Below are positions 2,599 through 55,870 of a stretch of 56,554 bases of DNA, one piece after another. Position 1 is the first letter of the stretch; each line of letters starts with the position of its first letter. A program made the position numbers and the translations under genes. The notes under the pieces were generated by a model, which saw only the letters and a program-made list of their open reading frames with translations, did no database searches and was not told the origin of the DNA. This DNA comes from a virus (taxonomy: Duplodnaviria; Caudoviricetes): the IMG/VR virus record IMGVR_UViG_3300014201_000010, positions 1 through 56,554 of that record. One strand, 5' to 3'.

Positions 2599-3264
2599 TT
2601 AAATAAGACCTAATAATCTGTCCAGGCCTATTGATATTTCGTGAATTTGATAGCCTGGAAGATCATTTCTAATACTGCATCCCGCTACTTCTAATTTATT
2701 AATGTGCCAATCTATAGTTTTGATACTGTAATGTGGCAAATCGGTAGGTTCTTCAAGATAATTCTCATTACCCATATTAGAAAATCTTGTTTGAATAGCT
2801 TCTATTCCCCTTTCCATATAATTAGCCTTAGTTGATTCAGCGCAGATAAGCTCGAATTCTAGCTGCCAGAATTCACGTAATCTTAATTTGCTCGCCCTCA
2901 TCGTATCAGATGTTTTTTCATCTCTGAATGACTTGCCTGTTTGCCATATGCAGATAGGTAACAACTTATTGCGTTGGTTTTCTTGAGGAAAAATATCAAA
3001 GAAAGCCTGAAAACAACCACCCGCTATTTCAGGTCTTAAATAACCATGTTCAGTTTGTATCATAGGGAAACCTTCATCAGTATGCCCTTTTAGATAAGAT
3101 TCAGGTGTTAATATAGGAGTTTCTATTCTACAGAACTTCACAGCAGGATTAAGTCTAGTCCATGTTTTTTTAAGGATTTGGTAAATAATCTTTGTAATAG
3201 CTTCTCTTTCTTCGATTTCCTGTTCGTTCCAATAAACGGTTGCATTTGAATACATTTGTTTCAT
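2599..3264 (-). CDS. Truncated glycyl-tRNA-synthetase-like class II aaRS catalytic domain
   Basis: LRPEIAGG, motif 2 GKSFRDE...LRLREFWQLEFE, HYSIKTID, LEVAGCSIRND, motif 3 HEISIGLDRL; protein ends right after motif 3. Confidence 0.8.
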   Translation of the reverse strand: MKQMYSNATVYWNEQEIEEREAITKIIYQILKKTWTRLNPAVKFCRIETPILTPESYLKGHTDEGFPMIQTEHGYLRPEIAGGCFQAFFDIFPQENQRNKLLPICIWQTGKSFRDEKTSDTMRASKLRLREFWQLEFELICAESTKANYMERGIEAIQTRFSNMGNENYLEEPTDLPHYSIKTIDWHINKLEVAGCSIRNDLPGYQIHEISIGLDRLLGLI

Positions 3265-6106: not shown

Positions 6107-6942
6107 GTGAGGATTTTATGTCAGTAGTAACCGAAATTAATCAGCACTACGCTGCAGAGCATCCAGTTCCGCGGCATACTTTTGAGGTTTCTCAAAAAGA
6201 GATTAAGCGCCTTACTGGATTTATCAATCAGATGGTAAAGATTTTTATAGAAAGGAATATTGAATTTCCTGCTGAAATTAGACGATTTTATTTAGATCAT
6301 GATCCACAACGTGATGCCGTTAGAGCCAAAATTAAACATGATTTAACTGTTTTAGCCCAGCTGAAGCAAGACACTATTGCTCATCAATCTTATCAAGGTA
6401 GATAAATATGACTAAAAAAGCTGAAAAGACTAAAAAAGAATCAAAAGTTCCAGAAGTAACCATTATTGGATACAAACCAAAGCAATCAGTTCGTATAGAA
6501 AAAGCTGATAATGGCTATACAGTCTGTACTCATGGATTAACGGGTGAAAAGACCTTGATAGCTAAAACTATGGATGAAGCTTTGAAAAGCGCTAAAAAGC
6601 TTATGGGAAAGAAGGATAAAGTAGGATGAGTTTACTATAAATAATATTATGTTGATTCCTATACTAGGGCTTTTAGTAGTTTTATTTGGTGTGTGCTGTC
6701 ATTCTTGGGTGGCAATACCCATAATTTTAATTGGTTTGTGGTTATTAGGAAAAGTTATTATATTAATAAACAAAATTAACTATTTGTTTATTAATGAATT
6801 TTCTTAATAAAGCATTTCCATATCCTATTCTTATTAGTCCCAGAAAAGTACACCATCCGATGCCAGTTCAGATATGGAATAAGAATATATAACATCTGTA
6901 TCGCCTATTTTGAGCAGGCGCTGAGCAGGCGTTAGCTGCTAA

Positions 6943-27903: not shown

Positions 27904-29379
27904 TTAAAATGGCACTTCTAATATTTGTTCACCATCTTTATAAACGGTCTTTAATTCATTTTCTTGTGATACAAATTCATTCCATGGCATATTTTCTAAA
28001 ACTTTATAAGTTTTCCCATTTTTAGATAGCTTACTATGATTATCTACTTTAATAACCTTTAATAATCCTGAATGACTTTTTTTAGTGCCATCATCCGTTT
28101 TAGGATTTTTAGTAATAGCTATTCCTTTACCATTAATCTCAGCATAAGTTGCTTTCATGGCCCAACCCAGTGAATCACGGGTCTGATACTGATAACTGTA
28201 GGACCCGACTCCAAATACAATATTTGTACTAGCAAATCCTTTTTGTTTTAGCTGAGCACATATTTTCTCACATCTATCTAAAGTAATACTATCACCATAG
28301 ATGGCACCTATATGTGAATCTAGCTGTTTATAGCCTTTACTATTTATAGTACCGCCGAATATATCCCATAGTCTTTCAATCACTCCAGCGCGCTCAGAAC
28401 TGCCAGGAACAGCCCTATTATCGCCACATATGATTTTTACAGGGTCGCCTGAATCAGGGCGACAGATCACACGACCATTACGTTGCATGATATCTTTTTT
28501 CAAAACTGGTAAATATTTATCGATAACATTAAAAAGATCCCATGTATCCATTACCAGTGAGATCATGCCTGCTGGATAAACTTCGGTAATTAATCGTTTA
28601 TAGTTTTCTAATTCATTCTCTTTGCCAGCAGCAGAATGAATAGAATGTTCGCTAGCTGGGATTGAGGTGCCATGACTTAAAGGTTTATTATAATAATGAT
28701 TACCGGCAAGAATAGCTGGAATGCTATCGCTGCCTTTAAAGTAATTAAGATGAGCCATTCCTGATAATACCGCAGCTTCCATTCCATACATGCCTCTGAA
28801 GCTAAAATCATGAGCCTGATAATCAACAAATTCTGGCATATCGCTTGTTTCAATTGCATAACGATCTAATATAAGACGATATTCTCTGGCTATAGTTGCT
28901 GAGGTACATGCTCCCCATAACACACAAGAAAGCATGGTTTCAAGCATATTGGTTACCCAATAAAAAGCAGGATGAGTATTGAATATAACTAATGCTGGGA
29001 CTCCGCATGGGACTATAGCTCCCTCCGGTAAGGATTTAATCTCTATTGGTAAATATCCTAATTTATGTAGTGCTTCTATATTATCCCAATGCCTATCATA
29101 TCCTAATGTCTGTTTCATAACTTTCTGATATTCTGTCAATACTTTTTTAAGTGGCTTATTGAAGAACATGATATTGAAACCATCTAAATGCTCTTCGATT
29201 AAATATTTTAAACCGAAAAAAACAGAATAATTAATTCCTTCTAACCTTGATTTGCGAGGCGTAAAGTTACTAACTATTCGTGTAGTTCCTTCTGGATACA
29301 TTTTAAAGTGAGAGACTTTATAAAAGTCTTTAAGATAAATTGGATTTATGTGACCAAAATCTGTTTTATACATTTTCAT
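27904..29379 (-). CDS. Nicotinamide phosphoribosyltransferase-like (NARP1 Namat-like)
   Basis: DFYKVSH, HDFSFRG, SIPASEHS, RPDSGDP, IYGDSIT, GVGSYSYQ, K.PKTDDGTKKS. Confidence 0.9.
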   Translation of the reverse strand: MKMYKTDFGHINPIYLKDFYKVSHFKMYPEGTTRIVSNFTPRKSRLEGINYSVFFGLKYLIEEHLDGFNIMFFNKPLKKVLTEYQKVMKQTLGYDRHWDNIEALHKLGYLPIEIKSLPEGAIVPCGVPALVIFNTHPAFYWVTNMLETMLSCVLWGACTSATIAREYRLILDRYAIETSDMPEFVDYQAHDFSFRGMYGMEAAVLSGMAHLNYFKGSDSIPAILAGNHYYNKPLSHGTSIPASEHSIHSAAGKENELENYKRLITEVYPAGMISLVMDTWDLFNVIDKYLPVLKKDIMQRNGRVICRPDSGDPVKIICGDNRAVPGSSERAGVIERLWDIFGGTINSKGYKQLDSHIGAIYGDSITLDRCEKICAQLKQKGFASTNIVFGVGSYSYQYQTRDSLGWAMKATYAEINGKGIAITKNPKTDDGTKKSHSGLLKVIKVDNHSKLSKNGKTYKVLENMPWNEFVSQENELKTVYKDGEQILEVPF

Positions 29380-29750
29380 TTTCCTTATCGTTTAGATAAA
29401 TAACGTAAAAATATTTTTCGTTAATATTTTCTAGTTTTGGTTTATATTTGCCATTATATTTATCAATATCAATTGAGTAATAATTAAAAAAAGATTTAGC
29501 ACCTATTATATAATATGTTTTGTTAACAGTAACAGTAAATATTCCTTCTAATGTGTTATTATTTGTAAAATCAAATACTATTGCATTTTTATGTTTTGAA
29601 AATGAAAGTATAACATATTTAAATTTATTATTTTTGTTTAAAATTGTTATAAAAGCATTATTGAACCTAAGAGTTTTGTCTTTATTAATTTTTATTATTG
29701 GGTTACTGAATCTTGATCTAACTTTTTTAAATATTTCTAAGTCGCTCCAA

Positions 29751-30209
29751 TCATTCATTTTCATTTTCCTTATTAATTGAGAATTCTTTCATAGAGTTTT
29801 GAAGACATATAATTCCGTGCCTACGCCACATTTGTACAACTTGTTCCCTATCATCGATTACTAAATCTGGCCACCATCCTTCAGATTTCAGTTGCAGAAG
29901 TATTTCTTCTTTTATAACTTCATCAGGTCTATAATCTCCCGCTGGACGCATTCTTAAATCAAAACCACCTATTGTATGACTTTCAAGCCATTCTAAAGTA
30001 TGAGGTCTATAATCTTCATTTCTGCCTGAAACTAATTTTATATCATATTCAAGAGATAAGGTTCCTAATAAATATACTATTGGTTTTATAGGTGGATCCA
30101 TAACCATAGATTCATTAAAACTTTTCCAATCATGATTGCCATCTGATACAAAATGTCTTCTATGTCTACAATCTGCTAATGTGCCATCTATGTCGAAAAT
30201 TATTTTCAT
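29751..30209 (-). CDS. HAD phosphatase, T4 PNK (PseT) 3'-phosphatase-like
   Basis: FDIDGTLAD, VSGR, MRPAGDYRPD..IKEE, DDR.QVVQMWR..G..CLQ. Confidence 0.85.
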   Translation of the reverse strand: MKIIFDIDGTLADCRHRRHFVSDGNHDWKSFNESMVMDPPIKPIVYLLGTLSLEYDIKLVSGRNEDYRPHTLEWLESHTIGGFDLRMRPAGDYRPDEVIKEEILLQLKSEGWWPDLVIDDREQVVQMWRRHGIICLQNSMKEFSINKENENE

Positions 30210-30784
30210 TCATTATTTTCCTTATGTTTAGTATCAAATTCTTTATGTTTTTCCAACCATTCTAATGTTTCATCACTTAATGCGCCCATTTCTTTATAAA
30301 ATTGCATACATGTTAAAACTTCGCATGTCACTCTTATAAGTTTATCTAATTCTTTTTTATCTCTTTCTCTATCGTCACTATCATCATAATAACAAGGCAT
30401 ATTAATCTCCCTTATTTATGGATTCATACCGATAGCCCTATAGGCCGCATTTAGCTGTCTTTGTGAATCTTCTAAAGTCATTCTCATATATTCTTTTTCA
30501 TCTTTTATAAGACTGTTTATAATGGCTTCATATTGTTCTTTTTCTATGCATGTCAATATATTAAATTGAGTTGGACATTCTAATGATTTAAGATATCCAG
30601 CTGCATAGCATTCACCATGAACTCCTGCGAATGCTAACGTATTTGTTTTTATTGCATAAAGCCTATATTTAAAAATAAATTCATACGGAGACATTTTCCT
30701 TATTGTATCGGGAGATAATGAATCACGTATGTCTATGTTATCTTTGGGTTCTTTATGTAATTTTTTTTAAAATATTTAAGCATA

Positions 30785-31606
30785 TTATTCTCCCCACACA
30801 TCAATAACTTCGACTTTAGGATGTACTATATCTTGATAAGAATTAGTACAGTATATTTTCTCATAATGCTCAGCTACTATATCAACTCCCTTCGTAAATA
30901 AAGCATGAGCCACGAATAGATATCGTTTATTATTGGGATAATGTTCTTTAAGGTATTCAGCTATTTGTATGAATGTAGCACCGCCATCGCATAGATCATC
31001 GATTACTAATATATTTTGTTCATCATCTATTTTATGATGAGTCTCTTTTTGATGTTCTGATATTTGCAGAATTTTATTAAATTTAATACTATCAATGATA
31101 ATCTTATCGTTATCTCTCTTTTTTGAAAAGAACCCACTTGGATATCCATATCTATTACTATCTCCTCCTAATCTAATACATTTTAATTCTAAAAATTTAT
31201 TAAATGAAAAACCATCATACACATAAAACATATCTCCATATCTATGTTTTAGATAATCTTGATGAGGATAAAAAATGCGAATGCATGTATTATAAGATTT
31301 TAATATAGGAACGATAATATCTCTGAAGTAATTCGGCATTCCGATTTCAAAAGCTCTATCGGAACGCATTCCACAGAGATAGCAAAAACATATATCTGTA
31401 ATCAAGCAATCATTCTTATTCAGAGCTGTAACCAAACAACTTAACAATTCCAAATCAGAAAATGTTTTAATCCTGCATTTAATTTGATAAGTATATTTAG
31501 GATTGTAATGTGCCATATCTAACTTAATATTACGCTGTCCATCAGGATATTTAATTACAGCGCAATTAGTGATAGTTTCATCTTTCAATACGATAGTTTT
31601 TTCCAT
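30785..31606 (-). CDS. PRPP-synthetase-like protein (NARP1 Adps-like)
   Basis: YPDGQ, RSDRAF, VIDDLCDGGATF, LFVAHALFTKG, IYCTNS. Confidence 0.8.
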   Translation of the reverse strand: MEKTIVLKDETITNCAVIKYPDGQRNIKLDMAHYNPKYTYQIKCRIKTFSDLELLSCLVTALNKNDCLITDICFCYLCGMRSDRAFEIGMPNYFRDIIVPILKSYNTCIRIFYPHQDYLKHRYGDMFYVYDGFSFNKFLELKCIRLGGDSNRYGYPSGFFSKKRDNDKIIIDSIKFNKILQISEHQKETHHKIDDEQNILVIDDLCDGGATFIQIAEYLKEHYPNNKRYLFVAHALFTKGVDIVAEHYEKIYCTNSYQDIVHPKVEVIDVWGE

Positions 31607-37399: not shown

Positions 37400-37597
37400 T
37401 TATCCTTTGTTCCCATTTTTAAATTTATCTATTTCCTCCATAGACATTCTGACTAAGAGTTCATCACGAATAATATTTATTCCTTTTGGAGCATTAATGC
37501 CCAGTTTGCATTCTCCTTTATAAATTTTTAATATTGAGACCTCTATATCCTTTCCTATCAAAATAGATTCTCCAGGCCTTCTCATCAAAATTAACAT
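37400..37597 (-). CDS. csrA: Carbon storage regulator CsrA/RsmA homologue
   Basis: MLILMRRPGESILIG.DIEVSIL......KLGINAPK.I.I.RDEL; AGGAGG RBS. Confidence 0.9.
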   Translation of the reverse strand: MLILMRRPGESILIGKDIEVSILKIYKGECKLGINAPKGINIIRDELLVRMSMEEIDKFKNGNKG

Positions 37598-37800
37598 ACT
37601 TCCTCCTTTTTGTTTTCTACAATGTCCCAATTACTTAGATACTCAACTGGATGCATTTTTATGGTATTTCCATCGGGCCCTACAAGGCAATCATTTTTTA
37701 ATTGAAGATATTTTCCTTCAGGATTCCACGAATGATGTTCATCGCATACAAATATTTTATGACCATAAAAAGTTTTCTTCACCGCTTCTAAAAATGTCAT
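37591..37800 (-). CDS. DUF2829/Tad2-like paralogue
   Basis: MTFLEAVK...G.KI...W, ends LSNWDIVE. Confidence 0.45.
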   Translation of the reverse strand: MTFLEAVKKTFYGHKIFVCDEHHSWNPEGKYLQLKNDCLVGPDGNTIKMHPVEYLSNWDIVENKKEEVC

Positions 37801-46967: not shown

Positions 46968-47937
46968 TTATGCTAACCATAAAACAATATGTGCGAATAG
47001 GCGAATATCTAAGGAAGTATGATGCTTTGATGACGCAAAGAGATAACAGTGTTTCTCCAGAAAAAGGCCACGAATTACAAGATAAAATGCATTATTTATA
47101 TGGAGAATATAAAGACGTTCAACCATTATTCTGGTCATTCGATATGGCCAGAAATATATGGAAAGAATATAAACGAAAATTACTTTTACTTTAACGGAGA
47201 TATTTAGAATGAGCGAAAATGATAAACAATTGCAAGTGGCTGAAGGATTAAATCTTAGGTCAATTATTGTGGAAAAGAAAACGGATGATGTTGAACATAA
47301 GTTCAACTCAAAATTGAATAAGCTCAAAAAGCAATATCTCTTAATGGTCGCTTCTATAGATTCTGAGAAAGAAGAGCTCCAAGAAAAGTTTATTGAAAAC
47401 TGTTCAGAAAAGAACTTCAGTCTCGAATCTTTAATCTATATCAAAGATGAAATGGACCTATTGGACAGGAAGAAAAAGATTGCGAATGAGATTTACTGTC
47501 AGCTGGTTGGGGAAGAATAAAAGGGTTAATTATGAAAAAAGAAATTAATGAAAATATACATGTTAATTTAATTTCTTCGTGTAATGAAAATTTCTATACT
47601 ATAATTTTTGTTAATAACAAAAATTATAGTTTTGATTTATTTCTCTCAGATGGCCATTTTTGTAATGATCAAGCTAAAAAATTAATTTCATTTTTAGAAA
47701 ATTCCATAAACAATTAACTATATGAAACAAGAAAAATTTGATAAAATAATGATGATTTGTATGGCTTGTACAATAATAATGGCATCTTTTATGCTTTTAA
47801 TTTTGTGTATAGTCGCTAGTATAGGTTGTTATCATATGATTTATTAATAATGAATATTCAAGATATAATTACAACTATTGCATTAATAATTCAATTTATA
47901 GGAATTATATTTTTTATATTAATTATTATTTTTGATA

Positions 47938-48304
47938 GACTCCATTGAGATATCTCGATGCGTTCAGAGAAAGGCTTGCTCGTTGCCTTAAAACGTAGAG
48001 ATTACGTAGTCTCGTTAGCAAAGAGTATAAGTTCGGCTTATACAGCAGTTTGTTAAACTGTTATTAAATATGTTATGGCGAAAGTCATTCATGGGTTCAA
48101 ATCCCATACGATCTGTATGGATCGTTGGCGGAGCGGTCAAACGCGACATACTAAGGGTTTCCAAGTGCCTTTTCGCTTGGAGGAACTCCGATTAAGATAA
48201 CTTTTAATTGAGAAGAACTGACTAACCGAATAGCTGAACAAATTACTACCGACTATTATATTTCCGACTAACCAACTCTGGGTCGGGATATCTCAATGGG
48301 GTTT
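47938..48304 (+). ncRNA. Large structured ncRNA containing a circularly permuted class II tRNA
   Basis: 21-bp terminal stem 47938-47958/48283-48303 whose only non-Watson-Crick pairs are G-U; internal hairpins; permuted tRNA at 48069-48152. Confidence 0.8.
48069..48152 (+). tRNA. Circularly permuted tRNA module (3' half, GTAT linker, 5' half)
   Basis: TATGT, V-arm ATGGC-GAAA-GTCAT, T-arm ATGGG-TTCAAAT-CCCAT, ACGATCT, GTAT, GGATCGT, TG, D-arm GCG-GAGCGGTCAAA-CGC, G, ACATA-CT. Confidence 0.85.
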
Positions 48305-48377
48305 TATCATATATAAAAATTGTTATTTTCTATATATTAACAGATCATCATATATATAAAATAAGGATTATTTAATT

Positions 48378-48526
48378 TAGCGGCTGGGTGTGACTGAACC
48401 TAAAGGGTCTTTAAATCTCCGCATACCGGAATGAGGCAGCTAACGACCGGCGCTTAGGGATGCAGCGTAATGTATGTGACAGGAACAGAGACGCATCCTC
48501 CCTGTGACAGCCTGGAAAGACAGGCA
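48378..48526 (+). ncRNA. GC-rich structured ncRNA candidate
   Basis: Non-coding GC island; GGATGC/GCATCC stem; 3' GCCTG-GAAAGA-CAGGC hairpin. Confidence 0.5.
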
Positions 48527-49191
48527 TTATCTCAATGGGGTTTTATATGATTTATTTTATTATATTTATTTTAATAATTGGTCTATATTTAGGTTTTTCT
48601 GCTGTTTTGTTATTAAAAATTTATAATAAGAGATGCTTTAAAAATGAGAATGAGCATTTATGTCGTTGCAATGATGAACATAGCGATTATCATAAATTAT
48701 ATCCTTGCCGTCATAAATATTGGATAAAATGCGAGAGATGTAATATTAAATATAATAGTTTAGAAAGAGGTGCGTACGCTTGTCCAATGTGTAGTAAAGA
48801 TAAATATATAATTCAACTAGAAAATGATAAAACTAAAATACATGAATCAAGACTCAGAAAATACAAAGAAATAGAAGATTATTTAAAGTATTTAAGGACA
48901 TTTTAAGAATGAAATGTAAAATATGCGAAGAACAAGGATTAAAGAGCAAACTATATTCAGGTTATGGAGCTGTAACTTGTATGGGAGTTGGTGATTACTA
49001 TGATGAAGATGGAAAACATCATTATCATGATCCAAATGATACCACTATCGATTATAGTTGCAGTAATGGGCATGAATATCGTGTTGTTTATAAAAATAAA
49101 TGCCACTCATGTGATTATGGGAAGGAAGAATAAGTAATGTGGATAAGCGTAAAAGATAAATTACCTCCAGTTGGCGAAGATGTTGTCGCTG

Positions 49192-55796: not shown

Positions 55797-55870
55797 GGGC
55801 TGTAGCTCAGTGGCAGAGCGCAGAACTCATAACTCTGTGGTCGATAGTTCGATTCTATCTATTAGCACCA
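55796..55870 (+). tRNA. tRNA(CAT) with non-pairing acceptor stem (pseudo or chimeric)
   Basis: D, anticodon (CTCATAA) and T arms present, but GGGGCTG vs TATTAGC has 3 mismatches. Confidence 0.7.

Follow-up and report, generated by a model that had tools for sequence, protein, structure and literature searches.

Y RNAs normally partner the protein Ro60 and are defined by that partnership. For the YrlA form the hallmarks are binding of Ro60 and modification by TruB and DusA, and in Deinococcus and Salmonella the Y RNA tethers Ro60/Rsr to PNPase or another nuclease. YrlA RNAs occur in phages too. For animal Y RNAs GACUA is a word of the 3' strand. Another system with a comparable order of parts is that of the circularly permuted tRNA genes of some algae and archaea, reportedly described by Soma et al. 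in 2007. The layout of YrlA is described by Chen et al. (2014, PMC4201824): a V stem-loop, a T arm, a closed acceptor-like stem and a D arm follow each other, the RNA ends in a stem, and a motif GNCGAAN0-1G near the 5' end is a putative Ro60 contact. According to these authors nearly all YrlA genes lie within 4 kb of rsr/Ro60, and the published surveys of Y RNAs covered only Ro60-carrying genomes. For the YrlA of M. smegmatis, which has a 7-bp acceptor stem, they report that RNase P cuts the RNA and that CCA is added.

The DNA analysed here, called the window throughout, is a stretch of 56,554 nt and corresponds to a complete 56.5-kb phage record (IMG/VR). The phage has a P22-type portal, and the closest relatives of its terminase are ~60% identical. 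The RNA locus is a G+C-enriched stretch flanked by small + strand ORFs, and a promoter and terminator scan gave no result above shuffles. Our main reading, to which we give a probability of roughly 0.6, is that the locus encodes an orphan enlarged tRNA mimic of the Y-RNA type (YrlA-like) and not a decoding tRNA. The RNA probably binds protein through this mimicry. Its tRNA-like body is composed as follows.

48069-48152, +: permuted class II tRNA(Ser)-like body (from the sequence, ARAGORN on the re-joined halves and the architecture common to rsr-linked modules)
48069-48073, +: anticodon-stem 3' strand TATGT
48075-48088, +: V arm of 5 bp with a GAAA loop
48091-48107, +: T arm with TTCAAAT
48108-48114, +: acceptor 3' strand ACGATCT
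48115-48118, +: linker GTAT (G73-UAU)
48119-48125, +: acceptor 5' strand GGATCGT, followed by U8-G9
48128-48144, +: D arm with a 3-bp D stem and the loop GAGCGGUCAAA, followed by G26
48146-48152, +: anticodon-stem 5' strand ACATA, then CT

The individual parts were read from the sequence, and every tRNA element that the sequence-only reading had listed in permuted order was found in its place. The acceptor stem has 7 bp, is paired at 7/7 positions and is sealed by the GUAU loop. The long V arm together with G73, G2-C71, A3-U70 and C11-G24 forms what we take to be a serine identity set. For the native order ARAGORN made no call at 48069-48152. After the halves had been re-joined by a script it called a long-variable-arm tRNA at 5/5 junctions tried, one of which gives the 7-nt loop CUUUAAA; these calls and this loop would suit a permuted tRNA gene, a possibility to which we return below. 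Rfam likewise made no call at its thresholds over the body. Its tRNA model reached 24.1 bits (threshold 29), and these bits come from taking an upstream hairpin (H4, 48045-48061) as the anticodon arm. Constraining the fold to the cloverleaf cost just 2.8 kcal/mol.

Two other known RNAs were considered at the level of layout. In two-piece tmRNA the T arm and the acceptor 3' strand also precede the acceptor 5' strand, whereas the window RNA carries A3-U70 in place of G3.U70 and has a long V arm. We rejected tmRNA of either kind, standard or two-piece: there was no ARAGORN call or tag frame and no Rfam tmRNA match, and the pair 3-70 is A-U. A permuted intron-exon arrangement of group I was rejected by eye, as there is no G directly before the 3' half and no P1 pairing could be drawn; the intron families of Rfam gave no match at the locus at E ≤ 10.

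The comparison with YrlA (RF02553) was closer. The window RNA has the same order of V arm, T arm, closed acceptor and D arm with conserved letters of the tRNA type, it ends in a stem at the place of the anticodon loop, and its 7-bp acceptor is like that of the M. smegmatis YrlA. The class II V arm had been put forward as a distinguishing feature; this did not hold, because many YrlA RNAs already have a V stem-loop. The window RNA stands out by its size, an extra 3' domain and the missing Ro60. YrlA RNAs measure ~100-150 nt, compared with 272 nt for the window RNA (368 nt with its stalk), about twice the usual size. Further differences are the clear 5-bp anticodon stem, two extra hairpins, a tract with three GACUA words, a degenerate 5' motif, the lack of a Ro60 gene nearby or anywhere in the phage and the lack of an Rfam-model match. 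The YrlA model gave no match at gathering (69 bits) nor at E ≤ 10 when we searched 1201 nt and 311 nt of the locus. The earlier reading had made novelty depend on there being no full match to an Rfam family, and there was none: Rfam called nothing at its thresholds, and the YrlA and intron families were silent at E ≤ 10. The same YrlA model scored 32-45 bits on the rsr-adjacent units of three other phages (G031, G011 and G018), which is also below 69 bits.

In order to compare architectures we used R1, a covariance model built from window positions 48045-48190 alone. The genome search of 31 terminase relatives yielded a single match, in G031. The blanks in this search are weak evidence because it missed G011, whose unit later reached 27 bits by cmsearch. 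The match in G031 lies ~40 nt upstream of the gene for a 483-aa TROVE/vWA protein and is the third of three tandem units, the first of which is a sub-threshold Rfam YrlA match. In G011 the R1 unit adjoins a YrlA-like unit, and there the ~800 nt upstream of rsr (L327 2040-2830, -) are filled by at least 3 tandem Y-like units and T-arm-like hairpins. TROVE genes were present in 3/50 terminase relatives, in each case with such RNAs. The TerL match between the window phage and the G031/G011 lineage is at 49-54% identity.

When 80 phage rsr loci were searched with R1, 33 matches reached E ≤ 1, every one on the strand of rsr; 23 lie ≤900 nt upstream of rsr, 4 just downstream and 6 farther upstream. 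In 25 of the 33 matches the T stem pairs at 5/5, the D stem at 2/3 or more and the acceptor, closed by a short loop, at 6/7 or more. Four matches are ordinary or tandem tRNAs (L392, L335, L341:1257 and L362:1388). In the R1 alignment, which is fitted to the model, 92% of the cells are paired compared with 39-45% for slid partners, and each of the 7 acceptor pairs varies in both strands. R1 also scores 17-55 bits on tandem-tRNA junctions at loci pre-selected by T- and D-loop sequence; thus it detects the T-then-D layout and not Y RNAs as such. In 10 whole relatives without rsr (383 kb) there were 0 matches at E ≤ 5. Against 88 rsr-locus sequences blastn found nothing past the T loop, and therefore homology, as opposed to common design, is not proven.

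The likeness is nevertheless detailed in two units, the third of G031 (L320 1501-1616, -) and that of G011 (L327 2444-2585, -). Like the window RNA, both have a 3-bp D stem with the loop A/GAGCGGYCAAA, a V hairpin, and a hairpin with an A-rich spacer before the body. The closed acceptor pairs at 4/7 positions in G031 and at 7/7 in G011, as it does in the window RNA. For the anticodon-like stem we observed UGUCC/GGACA in G031 against UAUGU/ACAUA in the window, 5 bp in both with fully compensatory changes, while the G011 unit pairs at 2/5 positions. The G031 unit furthermore folds as stem, CGAA internal loop and stem, the layout of the predicted basal stem of the window RNA, and has CGACUAUU in the 3' strand. 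Unlike the window RNA, the units of G031 and G011 have 115-140 nt, stand in tandem arrays directly upstream of rsr and are without hairpins H5 and H6, the long tract and the terminal helix. The model comparison places the window RNA within the YrlA structural class, apparently nearest to an rsr-linked serine-type sub-form in related phages. The sequence-only reading had offered a choice between a new Y-RNA-like class and the precursor of a permuted tRNA. Its Y-like part stands on the YrlA order and on the rsr-linked modules picked by R1, but "new class" was an overstatement and the precursor found no support. By eye, most of the units inspected at the rsr loci have the word UACUUC after a GGYGWAGA-like start; UACUUC is missing from the window RNA.

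The body is embedded in a unit of 368 nt (47937-48304) with the following further parts.

47937-47959, +: 5' strand of the terminal helix (leader), pairs with 48282-48304; outside the RNA contig
47960-48014, +: leader with UCAGAG (47964-47969) and hairpins at 47971-47989 and 47998-48013 (minimum free energy and constrained folds); outside the RNA contig
48014-48030, +: 5' strand of the basal stem, with P1 GUUAG, internal loop CAAA and P2 GAGUAUAA (predicted pairs)
48045-48061, +: hairpin H4, 5 bp, loop UUGUUAA (folds; hairpins at the same place, helix 1, in rsr-linked units)
48155-48188, +: extra hairpin H5, 13 bp with a GG bulge (folds)
48189-48210, +: extra hairpin H6, A+U-rich (folds)
48218-48273, +: 3' tract with three GACUA words at 48220, 48251 and 48266 (word counts), partly the 3' strand of the basal stem
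48282-48304, +: 3' strand of the terminal helix, then UUUUAU (sequence, folds, repeat search)
48289-48307, +: copy 1 of the exact 19-nt direct repeat TATCTCAATGGGGTTTTAT, with copy 2 at 48528-48546

The + strand of this unit folds at -119 kcal/mol (z = -6.0), with 0/100 shuffles as good, and the - strand at -92.4 kcal/mol (z = -2.8); folding thus favours the + strand. The terminal helix had been described as 21 bp deviating only by G-U pairs. We can confirm that its 4 G.U pairs, all read on the + strand, are the sole deviations, with zero other mismatches, but by our own count the helix has 23 bp; the repeat search reports its arms as 20 nt and 90% complementary. UCAGAG is predicted to pair with 48276-48281. 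In the constrained fold of this single sequence the basal stem pairs 48014-48018 with 48268-48272 and 48023-48030 with 48256-48263, so that a U-rich run and a GACUAAC word are its predicted 3' partners; the local hairpin 48025-48043 is a competing structure. The rsr-linked units lack H5 and H6 or leave them mostly unmatched; of the 13 pairs of H5 they have 2-9. The searches gave no close homologue, so a single sequence, with no covariation, underlies the basal stem, H5, H6 and the terminal helix. The repeated GACTA-like words noted earlier are borne out by the counts: GACTA occurs 3 times within 51 nt at the tract compared with 24 times in the whole 56.5-kb window, and GACTAACC occurs twice in the window, both times at this locus. 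A search for phage targets of the GACUAACC words returned none besides the words themselves.

A search for relatives of the locus by sequence gave the following picture. Neither blastn nor megablast against 50,697 phage records produced a match, and an exact 45-mer from the locus had 0 matches in IMG/VR. A pattern running from T loop to D loop hit at least 119 stretches in IMG/VR; among the matches listed, the best closed acceptor was 6/7, and the cases inspected look like tandem tRNAs. With a stricter pattern we obtained 109 loci in metagenomes: both loops fell in ARAGORN-called tRNAs in 90 of them and one loop in 16, and in the last 3 (L144, L165 and L216) neither loop did, none of these being a homologue. 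Neighbouring genes were used as anchors as well. The 123-aa ORF and the RNA ligase led to no relatives, and the 136-aa ORF led to 10 distant loci without an RNA match by blastn. A homologue carrying the extra domains (H5, H6 and the tract) turned up in none of the searches made. Two of the loci seen on the way are odd in themselves. L165 (Ga0206352_10929148) has, at ~690-760 and 870-940 in match orientation, two modules of T arm, closed 6-bp acceptor with UUUU loop and D arm, ~190 nt apart; ARAGORN calls neither and R1 gives 39.4 bits on the first. Permuted tRNA genes are one possible identity for them, orphan permuted tRNA mimics another. In L114 (IMG/VR), at ~290-350, an HNH-type ORF is followed by a T arm, a short closed hairpin and a tRNA 5' half with a GTA anticodon arm, which is an odd rearranged tRNA region.

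The RNA is made. RNA run X2 is the metatranscriptome library of a wetland metagenome, from another sample and another study, and it holds 27% of the sampled words of 47700-48700. Its cover of the locus is one contig:

48015-48286, + (strand from the folds): RNA species of 272 nt, single contig, 100% identical, word depth 42.6

Within 47300-49100 this contig is the sole cover in run X2 and the flanking genes are uncovered, whereas the DNA run covers all of 47300-49100 evenly at 12.4; the contig represents RNA and not DNA carry-over. It begins at the first base of the predicted basal stem and stops at 48286, having covered the first 5 nt of the terminal helix's 3' strand. It has no joints and no loose ends and runs linearly across the GUAU linker and both ends of the body. 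Since one contig covers exactly this span, a linear RNA of ~272 nt with an intact linker exists; contigs give neither strand nor exact ends, and the strand was taken from the folds. A joint of 48152 to ~48064 and a cut in the GTAT linker, which the earlier reading had proposed to look for, are both missing from the contig; this is weak evidence, as it is at contig level and contigs miss rare forms and small RNAs. The first 78 nt of the unit (47937-48014) have no cover, which does not make their absence firm. Because the contig is without these 78 nt and ends 5 nt into the 3' strand, we read the terminal helix as a putative processing stalk; that an RNase III-type enzyme cuts it is a guess.

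Taken together, the preferred reading of an enlarged YrlA-like mimic would work as follows. The + strand transcript would be made with the surrounding small genes and contain the 368-nt unit ending in the 23-bp helix. If this helix is a stalk of the kind cut by RNase III, its removal would free a stable RNA of ~272 nt (48015-48286). In the mature RNA the serine-tRNA body may take the L-shape, with D, T and long variable arms and a 5-bp anticodon stem; with its 7-bp acceptor sealed by GUAU it would have no free 3' end, and it would have no anticodon loop. The anticodon stem would run on into the basal stem, whose small internal loop sits at the place of the Ro60 site in Y RNAs, and the basal region would lead to the two extra hairpins and the tract with three GACUA words. 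The tRNA-like head may dock on proteins that recognise a tRNA body, and the stem and tract may hold a second partner. The RNA could thereby be a tether or decoy, the role that YrlA plays for Ro60 and PNPase, with a partner that is either Ro60-independent or supplied by the host.

A more specific version is possible, though we consider it rather unlikely: a double-sized Y-like RNA independent of Ro60, in which the sealed tRNA(Ser) head captures a tRNA-recognising protein of the host and the three GACUA words recruit a second factor, e.g. the RNA-repair enzymes of the phage. Candidates for capture by the head would be seryl-tRNA synthetase, RNase P, PNPase or a tRNA-directed defence nuclease. 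In a bolder form RNase P would open GUAU and CCA would be added, by analogy with the M. smegmatis YrlA, giving a two-piece chargeable RNA. In Pfam scans of 101 ORFs the RNA ligase (PF09414) and the PNKP phosphatase domain of the phage were recognised. They belong to a counter-defence and RNA-repair set at 315-1217, 1214-1420 and 27904-31606, which further includes NAMPT, a PRPP-synthetase-like protein and a Tad2-like anti-Thoeris domain. A role against host defences is plausible because the phage has RNA-repair, NAD-salvage and anti-Thoeris genes. A well-expressed, elaborated Y-like RNA in a complete phage without Ro60 argues for an independent existence of the tRNA-mimic scaffold in phages, since the RNA lies away from the rsr site of the relatives and the phage has no Ro60. 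It is also a concrete molecule on which to learn what the tRNA-like head binds.

The alternative that survives best, though we consider it rather unlikely, is a classical Y RNA whose Rsr/Ro60 comes from the host or from a co-infecting phage and would be tethered by the RNA to PNPase or another nuclease. The architecture shared with the rsr-linked phage RNAs speaks for it, as do the 3/50 terminase relatives that have rsr together with such RNAs, the internal loop predicted at the place of the Ro60 site, and the word GACUA, which is also a 3'-strand word in unit 3 of G031, as in animal Y RNAs. The phage itself, however, has no TROVE gene: the complete 56.5-kb record gave none in six frames at E ≤ 10, with control genomes matched, and the Pfam scans of 101 window ORFs contained no Ro60 domain. 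The earlier reading had likewise seen no TROVE gene. TROVE was also found in 0/5 of the MAGs with related phage contigs (Gammaproteobacteria, Legionella and Aquirickettsiella), which are incomplete and weakly linked to a host. The 5' end of the RNA contig, AGCAAAG, is off the motif GNCGAAN0-1G at 2/6 fixed letters. The only exact match to the motif, GGCGAAAG, is at 48078-48085 in the loop of the V arm, and the chance of one in 370 nt is estimated at ~0.2; 47993-48013 is similar by eye to the 5' motif of rsr-linked units. Against this reading, too, nearly all YrlA genes in Chen et al. (2014, PMC4201824) are within 4 kb of rsr. The window has its PRS-like, PNKP and NAMPT genes at 27904-31606 (-), and their homologues in G031 follow just downstream of rsr and its Y RNAs. 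The window RNA is ~15 kb from the window's gene set on the opposite strand, which is not where the relatives keep rsr, and because of this distance and strand it is not the scar of a deleted rsr.

We regard it as distinctly unlikely that the locus is a functionless leftover, whether what remains of a tandem tRNA(Ser) duplication after decay or a piece of a Y-RNA array, kept visible by a nuclease-resistant fold or acting as a mere processing signal in a polycistronic transcript. The lack of any homologue with the extra domains and the lack of synteny with the rsr modules of the relatives would fit such an origin, and a stable tRNA fold alone could account for the high depth. On the other hand the break of both halves lies within the anticodon loop and spares the stem strands, the acceptor pairs at 7/7, the 368 nt are far more stable than shuffles, the 23-bp helix deviates by G.U only and the conserved tRNA letters are intact.

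Highly improbable, finally, is a precursor of a permuted tRNA(Ser)-like molecule, in which 48064-48152 would be excised and joined in the anticodon loop by the phage ligase and kinase-phosphatase, RNase P would open GUAU, and 3' trimming and CCA addition would give a tRNA with a UUA-type loop: besides the ARAGORN calls on the re-joined halves it can draw on letters like C32-U33 and A37-A38 flanking the break, on the ligase (PF09414) and PNKP phosphatase domain of the phage and on a 7-bp acceptor with G73 that suits RNase P (as for the M. smegmatis YrlA in PMC4201824), but the sole RNA contig is linear over 48015-48286 across the cut sites and the linker without a joint (a weak point), we identified no excision motif in the folds and no splicing endonuclease in the Pfam scans, the same flanking letters (CU, AA) occur in the rsr-linked unit of G031, which is plainly no tRNA gene, and the long open reading frames under code 11 give no sign that stops need a suppressor. 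The permuted tRNA genes of algae and archaea resemble the window RNA in having the 3' half before the 5' half and a short acceptor linker. They differ in a complete anticodon loop after circularisation and in a bulge-helix-bulge with its splicing endonuclease; we saw no bulge-helix-bulge in the window folds and the Pfam scans (101 ORFs) contained no splicing endonuclease.

Some further features of the window were recorded alongside. The 19-nt repeat TATCTCAATGGGGTTTTAT, whose first copy closes the RNA, has 2 matches in the window compared with 0.08 expected; it may be a sign of a recombination joint or a 3' signal common to both places. Its second copy lies at the end of a stretch 3' of the RNA (48380-48527, 148 nt, 54% G+C) that holds no ORF of at least 40 aa except the start of a small GTG ORF (48504-48626). 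Rfam matched nothing in this stretch, the folds of both strands were no better than those of shuffles, and run X2 did not cover it, which does not make its absence from the RNA firm. For the CsrA homologue that the phage encodes at 37400-37630 (-) (PF02599, 67.7 bits) we found no GGA-rich sponge RNA; 48380-48527 was rejected as such a sponge, with GGA 4 times compared with 3.6 expected and no fold signal on either strand. At 2599-3264 (-), adjoining a tRNA-Pro gene, a 221-aa protein comprises only the catalytic core of a GlyRS-like class II synthetase (NCBIfam glycine--tRNA ligase 62 bits, far below the cut-off; PDB GlyRS E 1e-7). With this GlyRS-like core it was rejected as a seryl enzyme. 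Just downstream of the portal gene, at 6811-6880 (-), lies the Rfam DUF3800-IX RNA motif with 39.9 bits (gathering score 36.8). The terminal tRNA cluster includes a sixth tRNA at 55799-55867 (+), which was seen by Rfam only (46.2 bits) and has no ARAGORN call.
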